From: a virus
Lineage: Duplodnaviria > Caudoviricetes
Virus record (IMG/VR): IMGVR_UViG_3300030333_004255
Location: 1-54,675 of that record
Length of the DNA stretch: 54,675 nucleotides
Direction: 5' to 3' (one strand)
Shown here: positions 6,216 through 19,560 of the stretch, piece after piece
Layout of the letters: each line of letters opens with the position of its first letter
How positions within the stretch are numbered: the first letter of the stretch is position 1
Notes under the pieces: generated by a model
Seen by the model: only the letters and a program-made list of their open reading frames with translations
The model's database searches: none
What the model was told of the DNA's origin: nothing
Made by a program: the position numbers and the translations under genes

Positions 6216-6231
6216 ACAGGATGTGGGGGGT

Positions 6232-6305: not shown

Positions 6306-6355
6306 TAGGCGCTACTACCCACTAAGGAAAAGCGAAAGAAAAGTTAGCTATAGGC

Positions 6356-6384
6356 TTGACAGGACCTTCCACATGCTTCACAAT
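6356..6384 (+). promoter_or_regulatory. Early sigma70-type promoter
   Basis: TTGACA-N17-CACAAT with an A-rich upstream tract; followed by three short hairpins (about 6391-6447). Confidence 0.7.
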
Positions 6385-6456
6385 GGGGCTGGGACTTGTC
6401 CCGCCGCCTACACAATGTAGGCGGGTTGGTCCTACCAATTAGGTAGGGGTGGTTAC

Positions 6457-6525
6457 TGTCCAATGGTTGGACACTAACTTACTGTCCAAGGTTGGACACT
6501 AACAGTTACTGTCCAAGGTTGGACA
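6457..6525. promoter_or_regulatory. Three tandem TGTCCAA-NN-TTGGACA palindromes
   Basis: 6457-6473 (3-nt spacer), 6483-6498 and 6510-6525, within a repeated TTACTGTCCAAGGTTGGACA(CTAAC) unit. Confidence 0.85.
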
Positions 6526-6529
6526 GAAA

Positions 6530-7483
6530 GTGAAATCAGTCATGGCAAAATCAGCTGACATGAAAAAGCAAGAAGCACACAAGGTTAACTCTACTAAGGC
6601 AGCCTATGCGACCCTAGCAACGCTCAACACGTTGTCCGATATTGCGACTCGGATTGCAGGTCAAGGTGTCGTTGTCCTACGCTCGCCAGCAAGTGGCAAG
6701 GTGCGAGGTGGCAAGCGTGAGACACCCGTAGACGTATTCGACGCGTCTCAATATGGGAAGTCTAAGGCTGCCAGTGCAGGCACTTACAAGGCTGGACATG
6801 CTCATATCTACATTAGCCAAGCGTGTACGCTGAAAGAGGTTCAAGAGTGCCTGGCCAAGGGGCTTTATACGCTCAAGTTCCACCAACCTATCAAAGGTGA
6901 CGCTAGCCTAGAACCGCGCAAGGCAGACCCATTCACGGGAAAAGACCTTACAGGCAAACCAGGTAAGGCTGAATGGAAGTGGGCACGCGCGCAGCTGGCC
7001 CCATTCTCGTCTCAGATTGCGAAGCTATACTGGAGTCCGCTAAAGGCTGTATCATCGGCCAAGCGGGACGCTACCAAGGCCAAGCAAGAAGCAGCCAAGC
7101 AAGAAGCTGAAAAGGGAATGAGCGAAGCTGAGAAGGCTCTTAGCGCTTTCCGCGAAGCTAACAAGCTACCTAAGGTAAGATGGACTCTAGACGGCGCTAA
7201 GATGGACAAGCTACCCTTGGACCAAGTGGAGCGAATCCAAGGTGCAATGACTAAGGCTATGGCCAAGCGGGTTGTCATCAACGCGGCCGACCTTACCAAG
7301 GCCAAGGCATACCGTGACGAAATCACGCCACTGGTAGACGCCGCGCTCAAGTCTCAACCTGCGACTGCAAGCACGGCGGAAAAGAGTCAAGCAGATACCA
7401 AGGCCAAGGCCAAGCGTGCGAACAAGGTCGCAGGTGTCAAGGCCACTCCTAGCCTAAGAGCGGAGTCAGCCAAGGCCAGCTAA
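6530..7483 (+). CDS. First early protein, Lys/Ala-rich, function unknown (start GTG 6530 or ATG 6542)
   Basis: 317-aa ORF directly after the early promoter and palindrome triplet. Confidence 0.8.
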   Translation: MKSVMAKSADMKKQEAHKVNSTKAAYATLATLNTLSDIATRIAGQGVVVLRSPASGKVRGGKRETPVDVFDASQYGKSKAASAGTYKAGHAHIYISQACTLKEVQECLAKGLYTLKFHQPIKGDASLEPRKADPFTGKDLTGKPGKAEWKWARAQLAPFSSQIAKLYWSPLKAVSSAKRDATKAKQEAAKQEAEKGMSEAEKALSAFREANKLPKVRWTLDGAKMDKLPLDQVERIQGAMTKAMAKRVVINAADLTKAKAYRDEITPLVDAALKSQPATASTAEKSQADTKAKAKRANKVAGVKATPSLRAESAKAS

Positions 7484-7545
7484 GCATTCATGCCCTAGCG
7501 CCTCTTAGAATGGATTCTAAGGGGCCCTAGCGGGATAAATGCTTA
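7481..7545 (+). other. Long intergenic hairpin (possible RNase III-type processing site)
   Basis: TAAGCATT/AATGCTTA base, CTAG/CTAG middle, CTTAGAAT/ATTCTAAG top; no U-tract. Confidence 0.55.
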
Positions 7546-7546
7546 G

Positions 7547-7562
7547 TGTCCAAGGTTGGACA
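7547..7562. promoter_or_regulatory. TGTCCAA-NN-TTGGACA palindrome
   Basis: TGTCCAAGGTTGGACA upstream of ORF 7584. Confidence 0.85.
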
Positions 7563-7583
7563 TAAACACACAGGAGACACACA

Positions 7584-7991
7584 ATGCGGAAACACGAAAG
7601 ACTTAGAACACTAGCTGCGCGGCAACTAGACAAGATGACCAGGGAAGCGCAGCTAGACCTAGCACGTTGCACACAAGGGGCGCGAACTAACTACGAGGCT
7701 CGTCGAAAGCAAAACCAGGTGTTCCCGCTCCCAGAGCACCCTATAGGCTCTAACGATTTCAGTGGCTGGTTCCACGGGTCAGGCCAGTTCAAGGTATGGG
7801 GTGCGATGTCCTATCGGGCTAGGGTAGAACTGGCTAGGGTAGCCAAGCCACTAGCAGCCCCTGGGGCGCTGTACGAGAGTGGTATGGCTAACGAGCGGAC
7901 CAGCCCCTACGAGTCAGCGAAGCTAGACGACAATGGGTCCATTCCGAGCGAGTGCGCCTACCTGCTACGCGTCGCGGTTGGTATAGAGTAG
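7584..7991 (+). CDS. Hypothetical early protein
   Basis: 135 aa; RBS CAGGAGACACACAATG. Confidence 0.7.
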   Translation: MRKHERLRTLAARQLDKMTREAQLDLARCTQGARTNYEARRKQNQVFPLPEHPIGSNDFSGWFHGSGQFKVWGAMSYRARVELARVAKPLAAPGALYESGMANERTSPYESAKLDDNGSIPSECAYLLRVAVGIE

Positions 7992-8010
7992 AAAGTATCA
8001 CTACCCACTA

Positions 8011-8148
8011 GGTGCACCACAAAAGTGGTGCATCGTTTGGACTGAAAATGACACAGTGCATAACCACAAAAGTGACTCACGCCACAAAAGTGACGCACCA
8101 CAAAAGTGGTGTCTCCAAATGGATACGCCACAAAAGTGGTGTCTCCAA
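8011..8148 (+). repeat. CCACAAAAGTG repeats (5 copies)
   Basis: Copies start at 8017, 8064, 8082, 8098 and 8128. Confidence 0.9.
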
Positions 8149-8189
8149 TCGTTTACAAGATGTATCCAAGTGGAGACGCCGAAATAGTG

Positions 8190-8322
8190 GTGCCATACAT
8201 GTATGGCAACGTACGTTGCCATATGTTGCCATATGTTGCCATACGTTGCCCTATACGTATGGCAACGTATGTTGCCCTATGTTGCCCTATGTTGCCATAC
8301 GTTGCCATACGTTGCCATACGT
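8190..8322 (+). repeat. 10-bp GTTGCCMTAY tandem array (9 direct and 2 inverted copies)
   Basis: gttgccatat, gttgccatac and gttgccctat units, plus inverted atggcaac copies. Confidence 0.95.
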
Positions 8323-8387
8323 CCTCGCGCGCATGTGGGCGCATGTGTGCGCGCACGACGTAATACAGCGCGAAAATTCTCGAATAC

Positions 8388-8468
8388 TTTTTTTTACGCG
8401 TCACGTGTAAGGGAATTTTTGAAAAAATATTTTTTTTTACGCGTCACGTGTAGAGGAATTTTTGAAAA
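8388..8468 (+). repeat. Two AT-rich direct repeats of about 38 bp
   Basis: T8-ACGCGTCACGTGTA-RRGGAATTTTTGAAAA at 8388-8425 and 8431-8468. Confidence 0.9.
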
Positions 8469-8478
8469 CTTTTTTTAG

Positions 8479-8494
8479 TGTCCAAGTTTGGACA
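8479..8494. promoter_or_regulatory. TGTCCAA-NN-TTGGACA palindrome
   Basis: TGTCCAAGTTTGGACA. Confidence 0.85.
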
Positions 8495-8516
8495 CAAACA
8501 CCAGGAGATACACACA

Positions 8517-8585
8517 ATGTTAGTAGCAGCTTTCTTAACTGTAGGTTTTTTCGGGTTCGCGGGCTGGGATTTCGCACCCCGATGA
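8517..8585 (+). CDS. 22-aa hydrophobic micropeptide
   Basis: MLVAAFLTVGFFGFAGWDFAPR, preceded by the phage's conserved RBS CAGGAGATACACACAATG. Confidence 0.5.
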   Translation: MLVAAFLTVGFFGFAGWDFAPR

Positions 8586-8593
8586 ACCAGGGA

Positions 8594-8834
8594 TTGCAGT
8601 GCAATGCATGCATGGTTGCATGCAGCGTATACCCTATAGGGTATATGCGCTGCACTGCAAGGCGTTGCACACGCTACGCAACTTGCAACTATACGGAATC
8701 ATTAAAGATTCCCGTTTGAGTTGCATAGCGTTGCACTATAATTGCATGATATTTCGTAATTTTCATGCAACGTCCAACTATTTGTAATCATTAGGCTTTT
8801 CAGAGTGGGTTGCACGCCGCTTTTTTTATGCAAC
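8594..8834. repeat. TGCA-rich non-coding block
   Basis: I count 16 TGCA in about 240 bp, plus the palindrome TATACCCTATAGGGTATA. Confidence 0.75.
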
Positions 8835-8854
8835 TCACTATAGACAACAGTTAC

Positions 8855-8870
8855 TGTCCATACTTGGACA
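8855..8870. promoter_or_regulatory. Palindrome variant
   Basis: TGTCCATACTTGGACA, followed by the AAGGAG RBS. Confidence 0.8.
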
Positions 8871-8882
8871 CAAAAGGAGTTC

Positions 8883-9257
8883 GTGATGCACAACGCTCAC
8901 ACGCTACAAATTATGAACCGTCCATCGCCTAGGGCCCAAGGGCTCCTGTTTGAAACGGAACTTCACACTTTCCACCTCGTTCGTAAGGACCGGAAGGGAA
9001 AGCGATTTGAATTCCGCACGTACCAGATTGGTGGCGAAGCGGGCATGGCCCGAGTCAAGAGTGCTGACGTGGATTACACTACCTCTGGCTTCGATGGTGA
9101 GCTGGAAGCCCTAGAGGCTTTCCGTCTCCACCTGGTGAAGGCAGGTATCGTCACGAAGGTCTCGAAATTTCCGCCAAGATTTTTTCCAGGTAGAGGCCAG
9201 CGAGTCTGTCGGTTCAACCCCCACACCGACATGTTCTACGCTGTGAAGGTAAAGTAG
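8883..9257 (+). CDS. Hypothetical early protein
   Basis: 124 aa; AAGGAG RBS. Confidence 0.7.
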   Translation: MMHNAHTLQIMNRPSPRAQGLLFETELHTFHLVRKDRKGKRFEFRTYQIGGEAGMARVKSADVDYTTSGFDGELEALEAFRLHLVKAGIVTKVSKFPPRFFPGRGQRVCRFNPHTDMFYAVKVK

Positions 9258-9341
9258 TGGTACTATTTGCAAAGCTAATAGCGATACTATATCTTTTCAA
9301 ACTGATTAGCCTGGGTTGTGACTGGGCGGAGGATTTCAAAG

Positions 9342-9707
9342 ATGAATTACCAAAGACACGCTGAAGTTAGCCAAGCCATGGTTAATAAGGGCTACCCTCA
9401 ATCAATCAAAAATCTCTCGTTGGATGAGCTGGACAGAATCCAGCAGATGGAGTGCGAGCACATCATGCATCCAGCTATTTACCCTCTCGGAGAGGTGGAT
9501 GATTTGAATGAGTGTACAATTGATGAGCTAGAGGCACGCATCGACAGCTGCCTAGAGTTGGCATCGACCTACGAGCGTCGCTCGAATAACGACTTCCGTC
9601 AGGCTTGGGAGCGTATGAAGTACAGCTCGTGGGCAGAGCGAGTGATGGAAGTGGCGGACGAGCTTGCAGACTTGATCGAGTACAGAAACAACCCACCTAC
9701 ATGGTGA
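9342..9707 (+). CDS. Hypothetical acidic helical protein
   Basis: GGAGG RBS before ATG 9342; internal repeat NLSLDELD / ECTIDELE. Confidence 0.7.
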   Translation: MNYQRHAEVSQAMVNKGYPQSIKNLSLDELDRIQQMECEHIMHPAIYPLGEVDDLNECTIDELEARIDSCLELASTYERRSNNDFRQAWERMKYSSWAERVMEVADELADLIEYRNNPPTW

Positions 9708-9713
9708 ACTTAA

Positions 9714-9729
9714 TGTCCAAAGTTGGACA
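9714..9729. promoter_or_regulatory. TGTCCAA-NN-TTGGACA palindrome
   Basis: TGTCCAAAGTTGGACA. Confidence 0.85.
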
Positions 9730-9734
9730 CAAAC

Positions 9735-9912
9735 TGTAGGAGTTGTGGTCAGACCAAGAACCAACAGGCTGAATTACTGCGGAGTACTGGTAAGTCGTTC
9801 AAACAGAAGAGGCAACGGGCAGGCTGCGTGCCACCTACTGACCTCAAGCAGCTGACTTTTACCATGCCTGCACAGCTGAATAAACGGTGACGTGCTGGCC
9901 ACAACTTCTACA
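9735..9912 (+). ncRNA. Candidate 178-nt rod-like structured RNA
   Basis: 18-bp closing stem TGTAGGAGTTGTGGTCAG/CTGGCCACAACTTCTACA with two G-U pairs that work only on the + strand, plus nested inner helices; no credible + strand ORF. Confidence 0.65.
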
Positions 9913-9917
9913 TTTAA

Positions 9918-9933
9918 TGTCCAAACTTGGACA
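9918..9933. promoter_or_regulatory. TGTCCAA-NN-TTGGACA palindrome
   Basis: TGTCCAAACTTGGACA. Confidence 0.85.
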
Positions 9934-9964
9934 CAAACTGCGAGGCATACTCGCGTAAGGAAAC

Positions 9965-10648
9965 ATGAAAATGTTTGAAGCTCTTTTATATTTTCCGATG
10001 ACTGAAGACGAACGTGCTGATGGTACTTCGATACCTGGCACAGGGGCATGTAAGCTGCTCAAGAAATTTGACAGCATCCACAAGGTACTTGATTGGCTGA
10101 ATACGGTGCGGGCCCAGAATACCAAGTACATGGATACTGGTGAGGGGTTCTGTTATACCTTCCGTCTCTCTGGCTTCAAGTTCCTGGAGCTAAAAACACA
10201 TCAGTATCAAACAGAGTACTCGTCGCGCAGTGGTACGAAGTTAGATGAACTCTCATCGATGGTTTTCGATGTTAATGAATTCATCTCTCGCAATGAGGAT
10301 GATGTGGATGAGTACCTCTTCAAGTGTGTGAAGAAGCACATTATTCAGAAGTATGTCAAGTTCGTGGGGAAGCCCAACCAGTTGGGTGAAGAACTTGGGT
10401 ATGGTACCCGTGTGGTCATCAAGTCCATGGGCGAGGACTTCGCCCTGGTCCACATGGTCCCTGACGGGACGGGGCAGATAGACTTCCACTTCCAGAAGCT
10501 GGACACGTGCCAGCATGAGTGGGTGGAGTCTATGGGGTGGGCATCATACCCGGCTCCCATGGAGACCAAGCCTTCAGTTCGTACCGGTAAGTACACTTGC
10601 CGGAATTGTGGGGAAGAGCGTGTGCATCTTCAGGACACCCCCTTTTAA
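9965..10648 (+). CDS. Hypothetical protein with C-terminal Zn-ribbon (CxH...CxxC)
   Basis: 227 aa; CQHEW...CRNCG. Confidence 0.7.
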   Translation: MKMFEALLYFPMTEDERADGTSIPGTGACKLLKKFDSIHKVLDWLNTVRAQNTKYMDTGEGFCYTFRLSGFKFLELKTHQYQTEYSSRSGTKLDELSSMVFDVNEFISRNEDDVDEYLFKCVKKHIIQKYVKFVGKPNQLGEELGYGTRVVIKSMGEDFALVHMVPDGTGQIDFHFQKLDTCQHEWVESMGWASYPAPMETKPSVRTGKYTCRNCGEERVHLQDTPF

Positions 10649-10654
10649 TTTTAG

Positions 10655-10670
10655 TGTCCAAGTTTGGACA
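10655..10670. promoter_or_regulatory. TGTCCAA-NN-TTGGACA palindrome
   Basis: TGTCCAAGTTTGGACA. Confidence 0.85.
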
Positions 10671-10698
10671 GTAAGTATCCGCGAACCAGGAGAAACCA

Positions 10699-10869
10699 AT
10701 GGTAGATGATCCAACAAAACGTCCATGTCCAAAGTGTAAGTCAGACAAGGTAAGGACCTACACACACCCAAGAGGCTTATCGTTCGGCTGCTACGTGCAG
10801 TGCGACAGGTGCGTAACGGTTGTTCGAGACTACACCATAGATAACTATACATCGAAACGAAAAGGTTGA
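10699..10869 (+). CDS. Small Zn-ribbon protein, Lar-like
   Basis: My translation: MVDDPTKRPCPKCKSDKV...YVQCDRC... (56 aa); AGGAG RBS. Confidence 0.6.
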   Translation: MVDDPTKRPCPKCKSDKVRTYTHPRGLSFGCYVQCDRCVTVVRDYTIDNYTSKRKG

Positions 10870-10879
10870 GGGTTACCCA

Positions 10880-11143
10880 ATGACAATCTCTCATATGAAA
10901 GCCCTGGCTGTACTCATCATAGAGTACTCAGGTTCATCAACTCCTCATGACTTAGCAGTTGTGGCACATGCCAAAGCCCTCGTGATGGGGTTGGAGAAAC
11001 TTGAAAAGGAACTCCTGAAAATGCAGGAGGACCTTGGGGATGTATGGGTGACAGATACACGTGACCAGAGAATGTGGTCATCGATAGACGACAGGTTTGA
11101 AACAATTTTACAGGGAGAGACTAATGATCTGCCACGTAGTTAG
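10880..11143 (+). CDS. Hypothetical protein
   Basis: 87 aa in the early gene run; GAGGG RBS. Confidence 0.6.
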   Translation: MTISHMKALAVLIIEYSGSSTPHDLAVVAHAKALVMGLEKLEKELLKMQEDLGDVWVTDTRDQRMWSSIDDRFETILQGETNDLPRS

Positions 11144-11618
11144 GACAGAAGGGGGTGAGACCACCACCAAAACTTTTCAAAATCTTCTCGCCGCAGTGAG
11201 CTACATCGATGAGATGGAGGAGAAGATTGAGGGGTGGTGGAATGAACTAACCCCACGTAACTTTCAGTGTGAACTGGTATTCGAGGGAGGGTTCTCCATA
11301 CAGGAGACAGTGGTGAATGACGCTGGCACATTCACAGACCCGCAGAAAAAATTCGATGAGTGGGACCTAAGCGCACCACGAGGAAAATCATCTGGTTACA
11401 CAGCTGGGCCAAAGGGTGAGTTCATGCATGACTTTCAAACTTGGCTCATTGATGGACTGTGCTTTGAGTACGGTTTGGATGATGGGGAAGTGTACAGAAT
11501 TATACAAATGTACGTAGACGGAAAGCCCATTGTAACTGTGAGCATTGGACATGGTGGGTATACAGCCCACCGTTACAAGTGGAACGATAGTACCTTTCAT
11601 TATGAGGGGGTGTCATGA
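11124..11618 (+). CDS. Hypothetical protein
   Basis: GGGAG RBS before ATG 11124; ATGA coupling to the next gene. Confidence 0.65.
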   Translation: MICHVVRTEGGETTTKTFQNLLAAVSYIDEMEEKIEGWWNELTPRNFQCELVFEGGFSIQETVVNDAGTFTDPQKKFDEWDLSAPRGKSSGYTAGPKGEFMHDFQTWLIDGLCFEYGLDDGEVYRIIQMYVDGKPIVTVSIGHGGYTAHRYKWNDSTFHYEGVS

Positions 11619-12058
11619 CACACGAAGAAGAAATCCAAAAGCTAAAGACTACCATCTCCAAGCAACGCAAGAGTAGGAAGGAGGTAAACAAAGAGCTGGC
11701 TAATGAGAAGCTACGCTACTCAAAACTAGAGGAGAAGTTTAACAAGCTGGCCCAAAAACCTAAGACTCCACTGAGAAAACAACTTGAGAACGTCAAGAGA
11801 AACTATTCTCAGGCGTTGTCTTCCGAGCGTGAAATAAAAAGAGAGTACGATAACTTCGTCAAGGTAAATCAAAAACGTGTGGATCACTGGCAAAAGACAG
11901 CGGAGGGTTTCGCAAAGCAGGTTGAATCACTCAAGGAAGAACTTCGAAAGTCAAAACAAAATAACCGTGAAACCATGGTCGAGATTCTAGAGGCACAGCT
12001 ACCGGCAGGGTTTCACAACATCCTTAACAGGTTACTTAACCCAGAGGATTACCAATGA
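11615..12058 (+). CDS. Coiled-coil hypothetical protein
   Basis: 147 aa, K/E/Q-rich heptads. Confidence 0.7.
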   Translation: MTHEEEIQKLKTTISKQRKSRKEVNKELANEKLRYSKLEEKFNKLAQKPKTPLRKQLENVKRNYSQALSSEREIKREYDNFVKVNQKRVDHWQKTAEGFAKQVESLKEELRKSKQNNRETMVEILEAQLPAGFHNILNRLLNPEDYQ

Positions 12059-12255
12059 AAAAGCAGACACTACTTAGACAGCTAGCATCAACCCACAATC
12101 AACTGGCCGAGGCTTTGGATAGGGCAGAGGCAGCAGAGCGTAGGGCACAGCAGCCCGTAGAGGAGGAGCCAGAAGTTTCTTACAACTTCTTTGGGATTGT
12201 AATTGCCCTAGGTGTTGTAGGTGCAGGGGTGTGGGGGATGTTGACCTATGTCTAA
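12055..12255 (+). CDS. Small protein with a C-terminal transmembrane helix
   Basis: FFGIVIALGVVGAGVWGML; GAGG RBS. Confidence 0.65.
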   Translation: MKKQTLLRQLASTHNQLAEALDRAEAAERRAQQPVEEEPEVSYNFFGIVIALGVVGAGVWGMLTYV

Positions 12256-12430
12256 TGCATTTAACATAGCTCTCGTATGGAGCTGCATCATCCTAATCAT
12301 AAAAGGTATCTGGCACATGAAGGTAGGGGGAGAAGCAAACTATGAAGCGATGAAGTGGTTGTGGATTACAGCAGCGTTCTCGCTGACAGTCTTCCACGTG
12401 GTTGTAACAAATAAGAATAAGAGAACTTAG
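12248..12430 (+). CDS. Small two-TM membrane protein
   Basis: Two hydrophobic segments; overlaps the upstream stop. Confidence 0.55.
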   Translation: MSNAFNIALVWSCIILIIKGIWHMKVGGEANYEAMKWLWITAAFSLTVFHVVVTNKNKRT

Positions 12431-12459
12431 AACAGGGTAAAACACACAGGAGAACACAC

Positions 12460-12645
12460 ATGAGTTTTTTCAAGAAGAGTAATGGACAGTCAACTACCCC
12501 ACGCCAGGACATGGCGCGTCACATGGTGGAGTTCGTAGAGAATGGGGGAAGCCAGGAAGTGGCTGATGAGTTTGAAGAGGCTTCAGCTATTGGTCACCGA
12601 CCACAAGGGTGTACACGTACACCAACAAAAGAATATAGAGAGTAG
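12460..12645 (+). CDS. Hypothetical protein
   Basis: RBS AGGAGAACACACATG. Confidence 0.65.
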   Translation: MSFFKKSNGQSTTPRQDMARHMVEFVENGGSQEVADEFEEASAIGHRPQGCTRTPTKEYRE

Positions 12646-12808
12646 CTTTTTTTTCAGTAACCCTATAGACTTTAGTTAATAGATAACATAATCACCGGGG
12701 GAATAATGATAGAGGAATATTTTAAACAGGAGTTTTTAACCCCTTTGCCAGCCTTACTTGGTTGGTTGGGATTGAAGTTAACCGGATTGATTTTTACAGG
12801 AGAGTAGA

Positions 12809-12979
12809 ATGCGTAGAGGAAAAGCAGCACTTGAAGAACGTAGAAACACAGCAGCTGAGTTGAAAGCTCAGCGTGCAGCACGGTCACCTGAACAACAGCT
12901 CGAAGTAATTAAGAGCCGTCCTGGTCAGAGTGCGCGTGAGACTACACGTCTTCAGGCACAGATTAAAGCGGCTAAGTAA
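12809..12979 (+). CDS. Small basic helical protein (56 aa)
   Basis: My translation: MRRGKAALEERRNTAAELKAQRAARSPEQQL...; AGGAG RBS. Confidence 0.65.
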   Translation: MRRGKAALEERRNTAAELKAQRAARSPEQQLEVIKSRPGQSARETTRLQAQIKAAK

Positions 12980-12991
12980 AACACCACAGCC

Positions 12992-13020
12992 TGGGCATGC
13001 TTTGAACTGCCCATCTTTTT
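12992..13020 (+). terminator. Putative intrinsic terminator or small pseudoknot
   Basis: TGGGCA-N10-TGCCCA followed by TCTTTTT. Confidence 0.5.
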
Positions 13021-13022
13021 AA

Positions 13023-13038
13023 TGTCCAAGTTTGGACA
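13023..13038. promoter_or_regulatory. TGTCCAA-NN-TTGGACA palindrome
   Basis: TGTCCAAGTTTGGACA. Confidence 0.85.
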
Positions 13039-13058
13039 CTAACTTATCGGAGACACAC

Positions 13059-13646
13059 ATGACAGTAGTAGCAGCAGGACCAATTATCGAAGCAACCAAG
13101 AAGACCAAGGGTCGAGACGGTAGCTCTCACTTCCTAACTCTCATCGGCGAGCGTCCCAATGGTAGCCAATGGGGTGGCGAGATGACCGAGGAGATCCTAG
13201 AGTTGTTCATCGCCACGGGTACCGTGGTTCCTCACGAGGAGCTGAGTCCCAACCAGGTAACCAAGGGGTGTGTCTACGTGAAGGTGGCTCAGGGTTTGGT
13301 GAGTAAACTTTTTCCCAACGCAACCTTCGACGTTCAGACTTCAAACAACCTCCTTCGATCTCAAATCCTAGTGGTGAGAAAGTCTATCCACGAGGGGCAG
13401 TTCGATGAAGACGGTAATCCTTTCAACGGGGTTGAGAATAAGTTCGAGCTTCAGACGAAGGTGCCTTTCGATGGGCAGGCCACCGATGAAGCTTGGGTAA
13501 TCCTCGGGCCTGGGGCTGACGGTCTTGTGATTTACACCACCTACCCTGGCCCGCTCCTAGGGGACATGCCAGAAAATTGGGATGGTAACGCGGATAAGCT
13601 GGACTTGTACCGGGATGCGTACCCGGTCAAGCGTTACCAGGGTTAA
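13059..13646 (+). CDS. Hypothetical protein
   Basis: Start reassigned to GGAGACACACATG (13059); VILGP...IYTTYPGP. Confidence 0.75.
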   Translation: MTVVAAGPIIEATKKTKGRDGSSHFLTLIGERPNGSQWGGEMTEEILELFIATGTVVPHEELSPNQVTKGCVYVKVAQGLVSKLFPNATFDVQTSNNLLRSQILVVRKSIHEGQFDEDGNPFNGVENKFELQTKVPFDGQATDEAWVILGPGADGLVIYTTYPGPLLGDMPENWDGNADKLDLYRDAYPVKRYQG

Positions 13647-13656
13647 CAAACAGGGT

Positions 13657-13744
13657 ACCCCTGCCCGAGGTGTTGCCTGGTGGCATACCCCAATGGAGCG
13701 CGCACTCCGGGGAGGCGTTGGTTCAAATCCAACCGGGCGGGGGT
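13657..13744 (+). ncRNA. tRNA-like RNA without a canonical anticodon loop
   Basis: Perfect T-arm GTTGG-TTCAAAT-CCAAC stacked on an 11-bp stem (13657-13667/13734-13744); D-like arm TGCC-TGGT-GGCA; no CCA. Confidence 0.6.
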
Positions 13745-13753
13745 TCAGTTTTC

Positions 13754-13769
13754 TGTCCAACTTTGGACA
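13754..13769. promoter_or_regulatory. TGTCCAA-NN-TTGGACA palindrome
   Basis: TGTCCAACTTTGGACA. Confidence 0.85.
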
Positions 13770-13787
13770 CTAACGAAAGGTTAGAAG

Positions 13788-14234
13788 ATGTGGAAAATAA
13801 ATTTCCCAGAGGGAAGTAAAGTACGAGTGTACCACGACAACGAGAAGGCTTGCTCAGGTTACTCTGATGAGTTTTTAATTAAGGGTCCGCGACCAAGTGA
13901 GATCGTGAGCATCTACCCTGAAGATGGGTTTGAGTCTGAACTGCTGATGGATTTGGTTGGTGGTTCCACCGTTCAGATGAATATGCGGTGGGGTGAAGGC
14001 CCGCGCTACGATCCTGACGGTAGCCTCGTAGATGAGGAACACCTCATCAGTTGTACAATTGAAGAGTACTGCGAAGCATTCTTCAAACGTGAGGATTCAG
14101 AAGAACTATTCAATGGTTTCTGGAGCGGGCAGTACTATCACTGCTTCCACATCGATACCAGCTACTGCAAGATTGCAAGCGGTACTTCAGGTGCTGGGGG
14201 TTTTGTGCTTCGAAATCCAAAGGATAAGTCATGA
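13788..14234 (+). CDS. Hypothetical protein
   Basis: 148 aa; ATGA-coupled to the next gene. Confidence 0.7.
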   Translation: MWKINFPEGSKVRVYHDNEKACSGYSDEFLIKGPRPSEIVSIYPEDGFESELLMDLVGGSTVQMNMRWGEGPRYDPDGSLVDEEHLISCTIEEYCEAFFKREDSEELFNGFWSGQYYHCFHIDTSYCKIASGTSGAGGFVLRNPKDKS

Positions 14235-14635
14235 CTAACAAAGAAGACATAGTGATGACCTTTGGTGGGGACACCAGGCTAGCTTGTAAGAACACCCTTC
14301 CTACACCTAAACAAATCGCAAAGTCCGTATGCTTCCGTAAAGAAATTGATTGGAAGATTTGGGCCAACGACACCTGTGTACGAGAACGAGATTTTGAAAC
14401 AGAAGTATTTGATAGTGAGCGAGAACAACTGCATCACGCTGCGTCAATCTGTCGTGACTTGTACAAGATTCAGAAGGGGCGCAAGTCAGTCACACTACAC
14501 GCATGGAGGAGAGGAACGAAAACAGGTTTGTTTATCCTCCGCTTCCATGGTCGTGAAGACTGCGCCATGAATCTAAACAACTGGAAAATCTATGAGCTGT
14601 GGTGTGAACGCTGCGACAAGGAGAGATGGGTGTGA
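14231..14635 (+). CDS. Hypothetical protein
   Basis: 134 aa; AAGGA RBS. Confidence 0.65.
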   Translation: MTNKEDIVMTFGGDTRLACKNTLPTPKQIAKSVCFRKEIDWKIWANDTCVRERDFETEVFDSEREQLHHAASICRDLYKIQKGRKSVTLHAWRRGTKTGLFILRFHGREDCAMNLNNWKIYELWCERCDKERWV

Positions 14636-15027
14636 GAGAACTAAAAGTATTTAGGGTTGACCACCTTGGCTACACCTGGTGCCAGAGTTGTATGTTTCAA
14701 GGCAACCCTGGGAAGTGTGACGAGACGTTTGCGTCAGTGCCTGACGAGCACCTTGGTTATGAAGACAAGTGCGATGGTTGCGAATCACCTACGGAGGATT
14801 GGCCTGGTATGCCTTGGCATACAAACGGACGCCTACCTGTATGGCCTGAAGGTTGTATCAACAAGTTCATTGAGCAGTGGGGTGAACCTCTTCGAAGGCA
14901 AGGCTTATCGGAAAAGGAAATATATAAACACTGGTGGGAGAAACACTATGGAATACCACATCAGGAGATTGAACGAGAGTTGAAACTACAACGCGAGGCT
15001 TGGCCCATAGCTAAGGAGAAGTCATGA
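14626..15027 (+). CDS. Hypothetical protein with two CxxC pairs
   Basis: CQSC...CDGC; AAGGAG RBS. Confidence 0.65.
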   Translation: MGVRELKVFRVDHLGYTWCQSCMFQGNPGKCDETFASVPDEHLGYEDKCDGCESPTEDWPGMPWHTNGRLPVWPEGCINKFIEQWGEPLRRQGLSEKEIYKHWWEKHYGIPHQEIERELKLQREAWPIAKEKS

Positions 15028-15323
15028 GCAGAACATTAGTTGAATCCTTTTCAAATGGATTTCTGAAACCATCAGAATGTTTGGATGACTTCCTTGCTGA
15101 TGAGTGGGGAGTCACTGATGAATACGGTTGCTGGTACATAGCTCAGTGGGAGGGTGACATGGATGACTCACCCCATGCAGCTGACTTACAATACGATGGC
15201 AAACGTTACATCTTCAACACGTATTATTCTGGGCCAGGTGTAGTGGTAAGGGGCTGCACGTATGGTGACAGAGAACTAGCAATCAAAGCTTTCAAAAAGT
15301 TAATGTCCAATGTTGGACAGTAA
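15024..15323 (+). CDS. Hypothetical protein
   Basis: 99 aa; AAGGAG RBS; 3' end runs through a palindrome. Confidence 0.65.
   Translation: MSRTLVESFSNGFLKPSECLDDFLADEWGVTDEYGCWYIAQWEGDMDDSPHAADLQYDGKRYIFNTYYSGPGVVVRGCTYGDRELAIKAFKKLMSNVGQ
15304..15319. promoter_or_regulatory. TGTCCAA-NN-TTGGACA palindrome
   Basis: TGTCCAATGTTGGACA. Confidence 0.85.
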
Positions 15324-15333
15324 GGAGAGACAC

Positions 15334-15582
15334 ATGAGTAACCCATTCCCAGACACACAGTATGACGCACTACTAAAGAAAGTTATGAACGAGTTTGCAC
15401 ATATGAAAAACCATCTAACCTATATGGAAAAACAGTGTGATGAGTTCCGTATGTACATCGAGGAACTCGAAGATGAGCTGATTCGGTTTCAAGATCCTGA
15501 TGCTACAGCTGAGGACTACCAGGTTCCTACTCAATATGGACAGCCAGGTGCAGGGAAGACTTACGCTGTAGAGGGAGAGTAA
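15334..15582 (+). CDS. Hypothetical coiled-coil protein
   Basis: Start reassigned to AAGGAGAGACACATG. Confidence 0.65.
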   Translation: MSNPFPDTQYDALLKKVMNEFAHMKNHLTYMEKQCDEFRMYIEELEDELIRFQDPDATAEDYQVPTQYGQPGAGKTYAVEGE

Positions 15583-15584
15583 AG

Positions 15585-16121
15585 ATGGGAGTGTACACAC
15601 ATTTATTAAACAAGTCCAAACCATGGACGGTGCCAGGTTTAGGCAAGGTATTCAATTTGAAGTACTCACATCGCAGTTCGGATGAGAACATCAACAAGTG
15701 GCACAGCGAGGACAAGGAGGGGAAACGAATCACTTCTCTTGCACTCGCACGTAATCAAAGGTCTGTAGATAACTGGTTCCCAACTGAGTACGTTTATTTT
15801 GCTTACGATTTAGATGACCAGGAAGTGGGCTCCATCTTCAAGGTTTTCCGGGGGAGGACAGACAACAGGGACCTACGAGTCTGGTACGACTGCAATGACG
15901 ACCCTGGTGAATGGGTGGGCACTGTAGAAGTACTCAACCTAAAGCCTCGAAAGAAACTTCGTTACCTACCTGTACCTCCTAGACCAGTGGATGAAACGAA
16001 AGAGACTTACATCTGCGAAGAATGCAATGAGGAAAAACCCTGGTCTAACGGAAGCGATTCATCTCCAGAGTGTGATGACTGTTGGGCCAAGAACCAGGAG
16101 AACGAGGGTGAAAACCTATAA
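15585..16121 (+). CDS. Hypothetical protein with C-terminal Zn finger
   Basis: CEEC...CDDC; GGGAG RBS. Confidence 0.7.
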   Translation: MGVYTHLLNKSKPWTVPGLGKVFNLKYSHRSSDENINKWHSEDKEGKRITSLALARNQRSVDNWFPTEYVYFAYDLDDQEVGSIFKVFRGRTDNRDLRVWYDCNDDPGEWVGTVEVLNLKPRKKLRYLPVPPRPVDETKETYICEECNEEKPWSNGSDSSPECDDCWAKNQENEGENL

Positions 16122-16380
16122 ATATAAAGTCAAACTCTTCATTGACGACTCAACCAACAAAGGCGTCCGTCGTTTGATGTACGGTGTTTATGACTACTGT
16201 GAGCAGCACGAGTATTTCAGAGAGGCAGAGTTCGAGAAGGTGTGGACTGCTATCATGCCCATAAGGCTAGAAGCTTTCAACTCTCGTATACTTGGAAATA
16301 TGGATTCGCAAGTTGTGCCTGAAGTCGTCAGCGTTACTAAAAGCTACTGGAAAAACTACCGTAAAAGATACGGACTATAG
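16108..16380 (+). CDS. Hypothetical protein
   Basis: GTG start after AGGAG. Confidence 0.55.
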   Translation: MKTYKYKVKLFIDDSTNKGVRRLMYGVYDYCEQHEYFREAEFEKVWTAIMPIRLEAFNSRILGNMDSQVVPEVVSVTKSYWKNYRKRYGL

Positions 16381-16439
16381 GAGAACACACATGGGTAAAG
16401 CAGAAGACGTTATCAGTGAAGAGAAGAGGAGACTTCGTG

Positions 16440-16838
16440 ATGGATGATTTTGTACAGAGAGAAGTAGAAAAAGATTTGGCTATGTTGAGAGGCTTGGACC
16501 GAAGGAGTCTTGCAGAAAGGAAGGAATCACGTGACGACTATGCAAAGATTCTCAAGGACCCGGAAGAGTTAGACATTGTTCTAAGGGACTTCTTCTCCTT
16601 CTCTTATGGGGAGGGTGCTAGATTTTTATTAGAGCGGGTTCTAAAAAATCCCCACAAACGTACAAACAAAGTGGCTCAAATCAGCGCAATGATAGCAGGG
16701 TTTGAATGTAAATGCCCTAATCGGTATGCGAAGGATGCCTACGTTCTCCAGCTAACACAACCAGAAAGAGACGCAGCTAACGAGCTATTCAAGAGATACA
16801 TCAAGGAATGGGAGGAAGAACAAAATGTGGACGCATAG
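16440..16838 (+). CDS. Hypothetical protein
   Basis: GAGGAG RBS. Confidence 0.65.
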   Translation: MDDFVQREVEKDLAMLRGLDRRSLAERKESRDDYAKILKDPEELDIVLRDFFSFSYGEGARFLLERVLKNPHKRTNKVAQISAMIAGFECKCPNRYAKDAYVLQLTQPERDAANELFKRYIKEWEEEQNVDA

Positions 16839-17088
16839 AACTTATGATGGGCACACCATCTGCGCTTACTCATCAGGATACTTAGATTGGGGGTTGAAGA
16901 TCACCGACGACTTAGGCTTTGTTGTGTTTAACAACCCACACTACCTGTCTAATGACTCTTGGGGTTTCAATGATCCAGAGGATGAGGATTCAGATGAGAG
17001 AATATCTTGGTCCGACCAAGAGTGGAAGGACGCGCTAAGGGAAAAAGCGGATGAGTTTATAGATTTGGTTTACTACCCAGAGGATTAA
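16825..17088 (+). CDS. Hypothetical acidic protein
   Basis: GGAGG RBS; D/E-rich. Confidence 0.65.
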   Translation: MWTHRTYDGHTICAYSSGYLDWGLKITDDLGFVVFNNPHYLSNDSWGFNDPEDEDSDERISWSDQEWKDALREKADEFIDLVYYPED

Positions 17089-17092
17089 AATA

Positions 17093-17230
17093 ATGAAACT
17101 TCAAAAAGAATTTCTAACCCAGGCTGAGGCTTGGGCATGGGTACAAAAACAGAAGCAGCCCAAACGCGGGGACTACTTCATCGAGAAAGATATCATGTCA
17201 GGCAAGTATGTTGTCTGGCTCATGGACTAG
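17093..17230 (+). CDS. Small hypothetical protein (45 aa)
   Basis: My translation: MKLQKEFLTQAEAWAWV...; GAGGA RBS; fills the gap. Confidence 0.55.
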   Translation: MKLQKEFLTQAEAWAWVQKQKQPKRGDYFIEKDIMSGKYVVWLMD

Positions 17231-17245
17231 ATCAGGGAGAAAAAC

Positions 17246-17452
17246 ATGACATCCATTAACATCCACCGTGTAGAGAAGCTAAAGATTGAAGATCTTAAAA
17301 TTGAATCTGAGGCTTACGACCAGGGTTACTTCTACGTGAAGAGGTTAGTTGTTCACTCTGAAGATGGTGATTTCCAAATTGACTTATTGTCTACCGAACA
17401 CTGCGCTCACTCTTATGAAAACAAAACAAACAGTTACTATGGAGAGGATTGA
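17246..17452 (+). CDS. Hypothetical protein
   Basis: GGGAG RBS. Confidence 0.6.
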   Translation: MTSINIHRVEKLKIEDLKIESEAYDQGYFYVKRLVVHSEDGDFQIDLLSTEHCAHSYENKTNSYYGED

Positions 17453-17490
17453 TTTTATTTTCCTCCCCTCATAGACATGAGGTATAAGCT

Positions 17491-17937
17491 ATGATAAACA
17501 TACAGCTGGAGATGCAGACACTTCGGTCTGCGTTAACAAATCTTCTCCAATTAGGAGTAAGCCGTAATTATTTACGGCAGGAAGTGAAGCAAACTATGGA
17601 CAACTGGCAACGCAAACTAACCACACGAAAGCCTGTACAGACAGGACTACCAGGGCCAGGGGACTTCGACCCTCCTGAGAGTAACCACGTAGACTTTGAT
17701 GGTATCCTCATGGAGGAGGACATCAGAGATTATTTGGAAAACCCACAGGTTCTGGGTGACTTGCTAGCCTTTGAGTCAGGCCCTGGCTCAGCCACTGAGA
17801 TGATGACCAAATATCTTTGGTCTCATTACTGCGGTGTATGTGATGAAACTACAGCGCATTACGAGAAGAAGATGATAGAGTTGTTACGCAATGTCTTTGA
17901 AAAAGAAATTGAAGAATTAGTAAATGGCAAATTGTAG
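17491..17937 (+). CDS. Hypothetical protein
   Basis: 148 aa; GAGG RBS. Confidence 0.6.
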   Translation: MINIQLEMQTLRSALTNLLQLGVSRNYLRQEVKQTMDNWQRKLTTRKPVQTGLPGPGDFDPPESNHVDFDGILMEEDIRDYLENPQVLGDLLAFESGPGSATEMMTKYLWSHYCGVCDETTAHYEKKMIELLRNVFEKEIEELVNGKL

Positions 17938-17946
17938 GAGGCAGTA

Positions 17947-18252
17947 ATGGCGAGCATGAAAGTAGAGCAAACGTCGCTTGTTTTCCAAGAGCTAGGGGAG
18001 AACAGGAGTCAGGCAGTGAGGGCTGCCCACCTGGCTGAACAATGTTGGGCACTATGCATCCGAATGGATGATGTAAATCTTAGAAGTCATCTGCTTAACA
18101 TGTCAGTGCGTGAGCTTGCAGCTATTTACGGGTCAGCTGCTGGGGAGGGAACGGCGTTTGATTTCCGAACAGACAGCGAGAAAGAAGAGGGTTTACCCGT
18201 GACCAGTACCAAAATTGCTAACTTTGTAAGGGAGCAGGGATGGAGGAAGTGA
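17947..18252 (+). CDS. Hypothetical protein
   Basis: AGGAGG RBS. Confidence 0.65.
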   Translation: MASMKVEQTSLVFQELGENRSQAVRAAHLAEQCWALCIRMDDVNLRSHLLNMSVRELAAIYGSAAGEGTAFDFRTDSEKEEGLPVTSTKIANFVREQGWRK

Positions 18253-18473
18253 AACCCCTAAGAGCGGGAATGCTCATAATCTGGGCTTCAGTTTCACTTT
18301 TCTTATCAGTGTTCTTTGGATTCTGTGTTGGGTTCTACTTTGATTACCAACATATATTCAGCTGGAGCAACTACCTTTTATTTACAGGTAGTGTTTTAGG
18401 TTTAGTTATTCTGATACTTCTACAAACAGCTTTATTGTATAAGCTAGAAAAACATATAGAAGATTCAGATTAG
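18240..18473 (+). CDS. Two-TM membrane protein
   Basis: Two long hydrophobic segments. Confidence 0.6.
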   Translation: MEEVKPLRAGMLIIWASVSLFLSVFFGFCVGFYFDYQHIFSWSNYLLFTGSVLGLVILILLQTALLYKLEKHIEDSD

Positions 18474-18547
18474 TATTGACGTAGTTAGTGTAAAGCTAAT
18501 AGATAAATAATGTGGTTTTATTTACAACAAATGCTAGAAGCATTTAC

Positions 18548-18563
18548 TGTCCAAACATGGACA
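18548..18563. promoter_or_regulatory. Palindrome variant (last copy)
   Basis: TGTCCAAACATGGACA, upstream of the DUF932 gene. Confidence 0.75.
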
Positions 18564-18582
18564 TTAAACAGGAGAGATACAC

Positions 18583-19560
18583 ATGCCAGCAGCGGTAGAA
18601 ACTATGATGTATGCAGGAGCAACACCTTGGCACGGAGAGGGCACCTATGTAGGTGACCAAGATGTTCTGAGTAAGGAGGCCCTCGTGGCTTCTGGTTTGG
18701 AGTGGGGTGTTCACAAAGCGGAGTGTTATGCTCAAGATGAGGGCGGTGATATTTTCATCCCTGATATGAGAGCAGTACTTCGAGATACTGACAATGCCTA
18801 CATGGGTATGGTCGGTAAAGACTTTCACCTTCTTCAGAACAGTGAAGCCTTTGAGTTCATGGACTCCCTGGTTGAAGAGGGTAAGATGAGATACCATACT
18901 GCGGGCTCTCTCCGTAACGGTAAGCGTATCTTTATCCTTGGTAAGATTGGAGAGTACGAGGCTCTGCCTAATGATTTGGTAGACAAGTATATCCTGCTTT
19001 ACAACTCCCACGATGGTACCGGGGCACTACGGTGTCTTCCGACAACAGTGCGGGTTGTCTGTGCTAACACTGTGAACATGGCTTTGAGCCAGGGACGAGG
19101 GCAGGGTATCTCGGTACGCCATACTAAGAACATGCGTTCTCGTATGGATGAAGCTCACAAGATTTTTGGCCTTGCTCAGGATCAGCTTTCTGAGGCCGAG
19201 GAGTTTCACAAGGCTCTTGCTCAGACCACTATGACCAATGGTCAGTGGGATGAGTTTGCTAACATCCTTATCCCTGACCCTGTTGGTGAAGGTAAGGACG
19301 GCAAGCCTAAGAACCCTAAGCGTGCTCAGAACAACCGGGACAAGCTTCAGAACTTGTACCTTATGGGACGGGGCTCTGAGATCAGCGGTGTTCGTTTCAC
19401 ACCTTGGGCTGCTTACAATGCGGTGACTGAGTACGTGAACTACGAGCGTAGTTCTCGTGGTGGCCAGGCCAACCGCTTTGAGTCTGCACTCTTTGGTAGT
19501 GGTGCGACTCTGATTCAGAAGGCTGAGTCAACACTCAAAGAAATGTTCCTGGCAGCATGA
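18583..19560 (+). CDS. DUF932/DUF945-family phage/plasmid protein (TIGR03299-like)
   Basis: PWHGEG, LQNSEAFEF, TAGSLRNGKR, NSHDG, VRVVCANT and WAAYNAVTEY motifs. Confidence 0.9.
   Translation: MPAAVETMMYAGATPWHGEGTYVGDQDVLSKEALVASGLEWGVHKAECYAQDEGGDIFIPDMRAVLRDTDNAYMGMVGKDFHLLQNSEAFEFMDSLVEEGKMRYHTAGSLRNGKRIFILGKIGEYEALPNDLVDKYILLYNSHDGTGALRCLPTTVRVVCANTVNMALSQGRGQGISVRHTKNMRSRMDEAHKIFGLAQDQLSEAEEFHKALAQTTMTNGQWDEFANILIPDPVGEGKDGKPKNPKRAQNNRDKLQNLYLMGRGSEISGVRFTPWAAYNAVTEYVNYERSSRGGQANRFESALFGSGATLIQKAESTLKEMFLAA

Follow-up and report, generated by a model that had tools for sequence, protein, structure and literature searches.

The Cluster O mycobacteriophages are reported to carry more than 30 copies of a 17-bp repeat, 5'-TGTTCGG-NNN-CCGAACA, located in intergenic regions or near the starts of genes (PMC4351075). 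The published account describes the motif as confined to the cluster, suggests dimeric regulators as its binders and leaves its function open. Some copies are intragenic, the repeats are concentrated in a single operon made up of small genes, and recombination between copies is implicated in insertions and deletions (PMC4351075). The promoter early stem-loop elements (PeSLs) of T4-type phages are described as conserved intergenic composites of a promoter and a stem-loop that lie between variable early genes and are thought to mediate modular shuffling (PMC4122927; PMC2839356). Cluster A stoperators are characterized as asymmetric sites bound by a monomeric immunity repressor (PMC9283540), and the KorB operators of plasmid RK2 as dispersed palindromes for global silencing by a ParB-family protein (PMC11790492). 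The present analysis concerns a palindrome, TGTCCAA-NN-TTGGACA, that is found 13 times, three variant copies included, in the early region of the marine phage in IMG/VR virus record IMGVR_UViG_3300030333_004255. The record spans 54,675 bases and has a completeness rating of 100%; it was analyzed whole and is called the window below.

The palindromes look like an element for gene junctions that can be used over and over, and that may either act as RNA or be bound as DNA. Our preference, which is tentative and to which we give a probability of about 0.4, is that they are standardized hairpin junctions between cistrons, which function in the early mRNA and have spread by copying and recombination.

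Palindromes at the gene junctions of the early operon

The exact pattern is found ten times in the window, and never in 100 dinucleotide-preserving shuffles of it. When up to two mismatches are allowed, the count rises to 12 (shuffle mean 0.28, maximum 3), because the copies at 8855 (TGTCCATACTTGGACA) and 18548 (TGTCCAAACATGGACA), each with one mismatch, are added; the remaining copy, at 6457, has a 3-nucleotide (nt) spacer (Table 1). The preliminary description had listed 13 copies of the pattern, and all of its coordinates are right, but only ten of the copies conform exactly. Its claim that the palindromes are limited to the early region holds: all 13 are confined to 6457-18563, and the rest of the window has none at up to two mismatches. 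Random placement would put 13 of 13 within those 12.1 kb with a probability of ~3e-9. Lone half-sites are near background, with 17 TGTCCAA and 15 TTGGACA in total, 12 of each belonging to palindromes. The flanks are conserved and roughly symmetric (TTA-N-core-N-(T/A)AA); farther out they are asymmetric, and the 3' side is often C(T/A)AAC.

The plus arm of the genome begins at the promoter at 6356-6384 and comprises ~39 ORFs (open reading frames) over 6530-21922, one of which has a Pfam match above the cut-off (DUF932, 18583). Three palindromes stand in tandem in the leader of this promoter, spaced 26-27 bp apart. The cores of the ten others end 12-31 nt ahead of start codons led by a Shine-Dalgarno sequence (SD), typically in the arrangement AGGAGAnACACA-ATG, so the earlier placement of the palindromes just upstream of ribosome binding sites (RBSs) is correct. 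Where 50-160 nt separate two genes, the palindrome invariably occupies the end of the gap nearer the RBS, and several palindromes directly follow a terminator-like hairpin and T-run. The early arm is thereby divided into blocks of 1 to 12 closely packed genes, and the idea that the palindromes punctuate the early operon stands, in that they are real, non-random and delimit modules. The palindrome at 9714 may precede a noncoding RNA, because the next ORF has only 36 codons. A search for a sigma-70-like promoter or a common motif upstream of the palindromes, made with an E. coli-like consensus, found none, and the palindromes thus appear to sit inside a polycistronic transcript.

As RNA, the core is predicted to form a stem of 6 bp capped by an A-NN-U loop, with a folding energy of about -6.5 kcal/mol (-6.3 to -7.2 over the cores). 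Perfect hairpins with arms of at least 6 bp occur between -55 and -6 at 11 of 48 plus-arm gene starts, versus 10.75% of 2000 random positions. Both the fold energies and this frequency are in keeping with a hairpin that functions in mRNA. The long early operon would then be transcribed from the promoter at 6356, with each palindrome belonging to a copy of one standard junction (stop region, palindrome, SD, start), and the stem directly 5' of each RBS would punctuate the transcript. In one version, the hairpin would protect the upstream cistron at its 3' end and would protect or insulate the initiation region of the downstream cistron from its 5' side. In another, it would be a recognition hairpin for an endoribonuclease or for a translational repressor. 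The junction might spread by copy-and-paste recombination among junctions and co-infecting phages, which would explain why its copies are identical, and it would in this way become a border for the exchange of cassettes.

Promoters have also to be considered, possibly of a hairpin type and used by an unrecognized phage RNA polymerase or a modified host enzyme, each giving a short early transcript. The terminator-like sequences directly before several palindromes would suit this explanation, and the distance to the start codon would suit a short leader. However, the palindromes at 9714 and 15304 abut or overlap the end of the upstream gene, and other phages have copies within coding regions. 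Moreover, Pfam and PHROGs recognize no RNA polymerase family among the 86 ORFs of this complete-rated record, which sets the palindromes apart from N4-type hairpin promoters and T7-type promoters. We regard promoters as extremely improbable. The string ACTCACTATAGA at 8833-8844, which we take to resemble a T7-type promoter core, is probably a chance likeness, because no phage RNA polymerase is encoded.

Pfam and PHROGs matches of the 86 ORFs indicate a siphovirus. The minus arm encodes a TerS-like helix-turn-helix (HTH) protein, TerL, portal, protease, capsid, tape measure, fibres and lysis proteins. Beyond the early genes lie a Cro/YdaS-like gene (22052) and then a replication module with an SNF2 helicase, a Prim-Pol/helicase, a PD-(D/E)XK nuclease, a Sak4-like annealase, DUF669 and PolA. 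The divergent gap that separates the TerS-like gene from the early promoter (6100-6320) contains tandem GCAAGTA heptamers (6232-6314) and ACGCAG(C/T)GCGT repeats (~6125-6215), and might function in packaging or regulation; 6174-6339 is skipped in one relative. The gap before the Cro/YdaS-like gene (21926-22051), whose sequence differs in a sister phage, contains a promoter-like TTGACT-N18-TATACA and repeats of its own (AACTATAC twice, and ATATATCACATAG / CTATGTAATATAT as an inverted pair). It is probably a middle promoter with Cro operators.

A stretch at 13655-13750 resembles a tRNA, in that a T-arm (GTTGG-TTCAAAT-CCAAC) is followed by CGGGCGGGGG, which is able to pair with CCCCTGCCCG ~80 nt upstream. 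No tRNA was found in a scan of the window, and both ARAGORN and Rfam were silent on this stretch. The Rfam scan returned no family at the gathering level, and under relaxed settings gave one chance match to a miRNA model (E 0.046).

Table 1. Palindromes, promoter and other junction hairpins of the early arm
Feature	Position	Strand	Remarks
Sigma-70-like promoter TTGACA-N17-CACAAT	6356-6384	+	10/12 consensus matches; sole strong one in the early arm; leader holds 3 palindromes
Palindrome 1, TGTCCAA-TGG-TTGGACA	6457-6473	.	3-nt spacer variant
Palindrome 2, exact, centre GG	6483-6498	.	Found by pattern search
Palindrome 3, exact, centre GG	6510-6525	.	Last ahead of the first early gene (6530/6542-7483)
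Palindrome 4	7547-7562	.	21 nt ahead of ATG 7584; unchanged in three metagenome relatives, flanks variable
Palindrome 5	8479-8494	.	22 nt ahead of a 22-codon ORF (8517); unchanged in relatives
Palindrome 6, one mismatch (A7>T)	8855-8870	.	12 nt to GTG 8883, 15 nt to ATG 8886
Palindrome 7	9714-9729	.	7 nt past the stop of gene 9318-9707; no convincing gene after it
Palindrome 8	9918-9933	.	31 nt ahead of ATG 9965
Palindrome 9	10655-10670	.	28 nt ahead of ATG 10699; gene replacement in relatives begins just past 10670
Palindrome 10	13023-13038	.	20 nt ahead of ATG 13059; hairpin and T-run before it
Palindrome 11	13754-13769	.	18 nt ahead of ATG 13788; follows the tRNA-like T-arm/acceptor-like stretch
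Palindrome 12	15304-15319	.	Within the last codons (...MSNVGQ*) of ORF 15024-15323; 14 nt to ATG 15334
Palindrome 13, one mismatch (T10>A)	18548-18563	.	19 nt ahead of the DUF932 gene; ~24-nt insertion relative to sister phage G011
Other junction hairpin AAATGCT-AGA-AGCATTT	18529-18545	+	G011 counterpart AAATGCA-AAC-TGCATTT; compensatory pair flip
Junction hairpin TAATCGTG-N6-CACGATTA	20340-20361	+	Positional homologue of one G011 TAATCGTAA-N4-TTACGATTA element; A-T to G-C compensatory pair

A sister phage and the mosaic relatives

A sister phage (G011, a 35.9-kb fragment) was reached through the Prim-Pol of the window, with which its own shares 88% amino-acid identity. It is collinear with the window, and the nucleotide sequences of the two are 95-98% identical over the structural arm and ~92% identical over the arm for replication. 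However, its early module (7.4-16.7 kb) is unrelated to that of the window (6.2-15.6 kb), the two having only three weak protein matches. G011 has a single one-mismatch match to the TGTCCAA type, in the replication arm, and its early module contains 12 copies of another palindrome, TAATCG(T/C)AA-N4-TT(A/G)CGATTA (TAATCGTAA-N4-TTACGATTA type). Ten of the 12 are followed by an ATG within 14-27 nt, eight of them within 14-18 nt, and six of the 12 begin on the final base of the upstream TAA stop codon. The slot between stop and SD-led start, and the dyad symmetry, are thus kept between the two phages, whereas the sequence is not.

The hairpins themselves have changed in a correlated manner. The variable pair of the G011 palindrome is T-A in nine copies, C-G (both arms altered) in two and T.G in one. 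The hairpin upstream of the window gene at 20374 differs from its G011 counterpart (21657) by A-T to G-C at one pair, and has lost the innermost pair. At the DUF932 junction, both phages have AAATGC(T/A)-N3-(A/T)GCATTT, with a T-A pair flipped to A-T. At this junction the window alone has TGTCCAAACATGGACA, in the ~24-nt insertion, which lies between the other hairpin and the SD. These compensatory changes, the coupling to SDs in two phages whose palindromes are unrelated and the lack of local promoters all favor hairpins acting on mRNA. A spread of the junctions by recombination would be consistent with the inserted copy, and with the swap of an early module that brought its own palindrome type.

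Of the variable early module, G011 shares only a 245-bp stretch (8609-8853, 81% identity). It falls in a noncoding region (8590-8850) with a long inverted repeat (~8597-8660) and many TTGCA(T/C) repeats, which is possibly a conserved noncoding RNA or a regulatory region. Among more distant Prim-Pol relatives (67-68% identity), four records had no TGTCCAA copies and no repeated palindrome in the stretches examined, which probably miss the early modules.

Contigs from three metagenome runs, 85-95% identical to the window, also provide relatives. The palindromes at 7547 and 8479 are unaltered in these contigs, and their flanks have substitutions, insertions and deletions. In two runs, 205 other letters take the place of 189 nt of a gene immediately past base 10670, and the alignment of one relative resumes 7 nt ahead of the palindrome at 8479. 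No further relatives emerged from a megablast of 6000-20000 against the phage collection, from a search of viral contigs with gene 13059-13643 or, apart from a 99.8% identical fragment, from a metagenome scan with gene 7584.

The replacement joint at 10670 and the inserted copy at 18548 would also be expected of a selfish or neutral mobile palindromic unit, similar to repetitive extragenic palindromic (REP) sequences, miniature inverted-repeat transposable elements or PeSLs, that serves as a recombination linker and has little direct role in expression. PeSLs (PMC4122927) and the recombination reported between Cluster O repeats (PMC4351075) offer precedents. In other carriers of the motif, described below, such a unit would account for in-frame copies in the variable linkers of proteins that are not related, for centres and flanks that agree throughout a genome, and for intergenic arrays without shared neighbor genes. 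However, no transposase, REP-associated tyrosine transposase (RAYT) or homing nuclease was found, most breakpoints of the relatives lie at gene borders without palindromes, and selection for function is suggested by the constant spacing from the SD and by conservation among relatives that have diverged. We therefore doubt this explanation strongly. Among the earlier proposals, that of sites of RNA processing or recombination defining exchangeable cassettes is nearest to our own preference. The hairpins with compensatory changes, the inserted copy and the one joint at the end of 10655-10670 speak for it; however, the breakpoints mostly fall elsewhere.

Other carriers of the core and the search for a binding protein

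The same core is found in phages with no evident relation to the window. Counted over whole records at up to one mismatch, with reversed-pattern controls giving none, there are 7 copies in G001 (56.9 kb with terminal repeats, GC 51%), 10 in the fragment G002 (GC 63%), 6 in the fragment G003 (GC 39%), 31 in the 36-kb fragment G004 (GC 62%) and 5 in the fragment G005 (GC 37%). Most copies in such carriers are located 0-25 nt upstream of an SD, on the strand of the gene. The others are intragenic and are read in three frames, as (E)VS(K/N)(L/V)GQS, VQxWT or CPxLD, usually in variable linkers; in a MuF-protease fusion of G004, a copy lies in frame between conserved domains. The centre and flanks are uniform within one genome (in G004 mostly C-TGTCCAAGCTTGGACA-C). 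When the 16-mer is fully specified, the CG-centred form matches 62 stretches and the GC-centred form 17. The uniformity within genomes and the in-frame linker copies are further points in favor of spread by recombination, and single-strand annealing recombinases, which the junction reading could draw on, are encoded by the window (Sak4-like), G001 (ERF) and G002 (Rad52-like). Named relatives of the window capsid and of the G004 capsid protease had no copies in any of five records, and a distant blastn with 8 kb of G004 revealed no cultured phage that shares the palindrome.

G003 and G005 are HMO-2011-type phages. In this group, the cultured Roseobacter phages CRP-1 and CRP-345 have 5 and 6 copies, respectively, and HMO-2011, CRP-2 and CRP-9 have none. 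The motif in the CRP-1 integrase gene arises from codon choices not found in its HMO-2011 homologue. Co-occurring with the motif is the whole CRP-1 early module, including its first gene (gp01-like, 'family B'; 31 sequences in alignment A1): CRP-1 and CRP-345 have both motif and family B, and HMO-2011, CRP-2 and CRP-9 have neither. The family B gene carries the motif in a disordered linker. An unannotated ORF of 45 codons encoding a very basic protein (MRYEMKNFIKF...) is found between gp04 and gp05 of CRP-1 (L199, MK613343.1; 2187-2324), with the palindrome at codons 13-18. This ORF is conserved in CRP-345, in G005 and in many metagenomic HMO-2011-type contigs.

A scan of bacterial genomes, with each species represented once, for pairs of exact copies separated by 5-35 bp yielded only 7 loci. 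Three cyanobacterial plasmid-like contigs have five copies with a 20-bp period inside an ORF of ~300 codons (L137, 3313-4179; L141, 824-1729; L136, 3476-4378), and the palindromes are read in all three frames. This ORF has a weak HTH_36-type winged helix-turn-helix (wHTH) at its N terminus, is initiator-like and overlaps the start of a DnaB gene, with relaxase genes nearby. The layout looks like an origin inside its initiator gene, with iteron-like repeats. A Kiritimatiellia metagenome-assembled genome (MAG; L219-L221) has three intergenic arrays, two of them among the 7 loci, without common flanking genes, and a Proteiniphilum MAG (L139, L222-L224) has arrays of 21-bp period on several contigs. 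Taken together, the arrays of these two MAGs have 21- and 22-bp periods, occupy several intergenic loci, often at contig ends, and share no neighbor gene, and by analogy seem to behave like REP sequences or bacterial interspersed mosaic elements (BIMEs). Pedobacter has one pair of palindromes beside the gene for a cyclic nucleotide-binding (cNMP) regulator. Mobilization by a RAYT was considered for these arrays and dropped: the Y1_Tnp model matched once, weakly, within a 1352-codon frame of the Kiritimatiellia MAG, and did not match the Proteiniphilum MAG, which is incomplete, or the window.

These distributions raise the broader idea of a previously unrecognized junction element that spreads horizontally across unrelated marine phages, actinophage-like contigs, plasmids and a few bacterial chromosomes. 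Its reader would be a fast-evolving class of proteins, possibly KorB-like as in the CRP-1 gp01 family, and sister phages would swap modules together with their palindrome 'dialect'. We consider an element of this breadth to be rather unlikely. If it exists, mobile elements would punctuate and exchange their genes through one modular system.

The wide distribution of an unchanged core is also among several observations that weigh against a hairpin acting on mRNA. All 14 specified bases are invariant, even A7 and T10, which are unable to pair across a 2-nt loop, and the TGTCCAA type yielded no compensated variant. In G001-G005, CRP-1 and CRP-345, the variants with one mismatch are one-sided, often disruptive and never compensated. 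This is the pattern expected of a dimeric protein that binds double-stranded DNA. Because the core is identical in unrelated phages whose GC content is 37-63%, in linkers coded in three frames, in arrays with 20-22-bp periods and in the initiator-like gene by dnaB, a sequence-specific agent seems to be needed and a purely structural hairpin to be insufficient. The junction reading leaves this 14/14-base identity across unrelated phages and bacterial arrays unaccounted for, and no shared protein was found. The compensatory changes represent only two or three events, and a palindrome stands at only 1-2 of ~15 mosaic joints or loose ends, most of which are at plain gene borders. Finally, the public runs listed include no RNA set.

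The main competing explanation treats the palindromes as operators. A sequence-specific regulator, encoded in the early module that is swapped, would bind DNA as a dimer at all 13 sites and would gate or shut the early operon as a roadblock or by looping, in a symmetric analogue of stoperators. In addition to the one-sided variants, this explanation fits the perfect two-fold symmetry of 7+7 bp with a free 2-bp centre, and the symmetric TTA/TAA flanks around a non-complementary position. It also fits the three tandem copies downstream of the sole strong promoter, the co-variation of motif type with early module between the sister phages, as if binder and sites travel together, and the five iteron-like copies of the plasmid-like contigs. 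The co-occurrence with family B in HMO-2011-type phages adds to this, as does, tentatively, a weak structural likeness to KorB: the modelled N-terminal domain of family B has as its best match the KorB DNA-binding domain (1r71_A; Z 5.2, root-mean-square deviation 4.4, 93 aligned), which is below the reliable level of the tool. Family B had no matches among PDB sequences and none in Foldseek at E <= 0.001, and no sequence model backs the KorB likeness. Dimeric regulators are likewise what the Cluster O account suggests for its 17-bp repeats (PMC4351075). However, a regulator does not predict the SD coupling or the compensatory changes at homologous hairpins, and there are no promoters beside the palindromes. 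The early module of the window yielded no DNA-binding candidate, and no protein is common to the window and the other motif-bearing genomes (blastp at 1e-5, phmmer at 0.05, a family B hidden Markov model, and hhalign on 104 ORFs). The window also lacks family A by tblastn and the initiator-like wHTH by phmmer. We see operators of this kind as possible, though on balance unlikely.

Two binders had been proposed for such stoperator-like sites, and neither is supported, although protein sites as such remain a live competitor. The first early gene product (6542-7480; 313 aa, Lys/Ala-rich) has four relatives only, and its model is poor (predicted local distance difference test score 62), with nothing in Foldseek and no match to a DNA-binding fold; comparison with a protein atlas returned viral clusters only, at 0.80-0.81. 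Its best structural matches are to SprT/Wss1, IrrE/PprI and other minimal metallopeptidase folds. A metallopeptidase reading was not used, because Z 5.3 is too weak and no HExxH was seen. The Cro-like protein is 75% identical in G011, which has the other palindrome, and the gap upstream of its own gene has other repeats. The TerS-like protein (100% identical) and Prim-Pol (88%) are likewise similar in the two sister phages; because the palindromes nevertheless differ, these three proteins and a shared host factor are unlikely readers.

The last point bears on loading or binding sites for a ParB- or KorB-type CTPase clamp, or for a replication initiator, of host or phage. The palindrome, with 16 bp and TGT...ACA ends, can presumably be likened to parS or OB sites, although its inner bases differ. 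The array in the initiator-like gene beside dnaB, the tentative KorB-like fold of family B and the C-terminal winged helix of the window Prim-Pol/helicase would be in line with such sites. In contrast, the ParB, KorB and HTH_ParB models had no matches in six frames of the window and four other motif-bearing records, KorB and HTH_ParB at E up to 10, and HTH_36 matched only G004 among the phage records searched. The statement that the window encodes no ParB, integrase or repressor other than Cro thus holds for Pfam and PHROGs on 86 ORFs, NCBIfam on 47 and the six-frame KorB, HTH_ParB and HTH_36 models. Moreover, the palindromes are dispersed beside SDs and are not clustered as at an origin. Sites of this class are very improbable, and the host clamp put forward earlier finds no support, given that the collinear G011 uses a different palindrome.

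A better candidate origin than the dispersed palindromes is found at 8000-8480. This stretch of ~480 bp has no credible gene, is dense in repeats and is interrupted by insertions and deletions in metagenomic relatives. Its repeats comprise four CACCACAAAAGTGGTG-type hairpins (8006-8146), ~12 tandem 10-bp units (GTTGCCATAC/ATGTTGCC, 8190-8330) and two 43-bp direct repeats (8383-8468). The stretch may serve as a replication origin or as an array that binds protein. For the palindromes, we also considered integron attC cores, serine-recombinase crossover sites, CRP/FNR sites, CsrA sites and pairing with the 3' end of 16S rRNA, none of which fitted.

Comparison with known systems

REP and BIME sequences, and the RNase III punctuation of T7, are short intercistronic palindromes that act as mRNA 3' stabilizers or processing sites. 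The window palindromes are similar in lying between cistrons, and the Kiritimatiellia and Proteiniphilum arrays are similar in being intergenic. However, no RAYT-type transposase accompanies the palindromes, their stems are too short for classical RNase III, and sequence rather than structure only is invariant. In the lambda O origin, tandem dyad sites lie inside the initiator gene, beside a helicase or loader gene. The three cyanobacterial plasmid-like contigs alone have such a layout, whereas in the window the sites are scattered and there is no O-like gene.

Stoperators work in temperate phages. Like them, the window palindromes are copies of a short site placed along an operon, in short intergenic spaces away from promoters. 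Unlike them, the window sites are two-fold symmetric, and neither a repressor nor an integrase was found with Pfam, PHROGs and NCBIfam; with no integrase found, the phage looks lytic. KorB operators share with the present motif a palindrome dispersed over a mobile element, and the weak match of the CRP-1 gp01-like fold points in the same direction. However, no ParB-family signature was found in the motif-bearing phages searched, and the window is without the gp01-like family. PeSLs are comparable as small conserved intergenic motifs between variable early genes in a plastic region; in the window, however, a promoter component was not detected, and what is conserved is a palindrome of 16-24 bp beside the SD.

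As far as we have looked, the literature does not describe the identity of the core across lineages or the exchange of palindrome 'dialects' between sister phages. In searches that did not cover supplements, no paper was found to name TGTCCAA-NN-TTGGACA, and its letters retrieved only papers on primers and macrophages; a keyword look-up on phage palindromes gave nothing specific. Unknown genes of lytic phages, among them those for anti-defence and host takeover, reside mainly in the early regions, whose expression and exchange are poorly understood. The palindromes provide a simple sequence handle on early-gene cassettes in metagenomes. The cultured carriers CRP-1 and CRP-345 make action as RNA or DNA, the reader and cassette exchange directly testable.

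The Cluster O repeat is the closest described case. Both motifs have invariant inverted arms of 7 bp, TGT...ACA ends and a short free spacer, and both occur in many copies between genes or at their 5' ends. However, the arm sequences differ, so the two are of the same kind and do not belong to the same site family. The spacer has 2 nt here and 3 in Cluster O, the present core recurs in unrelated phages and in bacterial arrays, and the window copies are restricted to the early operon and coupled to SDs. Intercistronic junctions of the type proposed here may account for the long-unexplained repeats of the Cluster O type.

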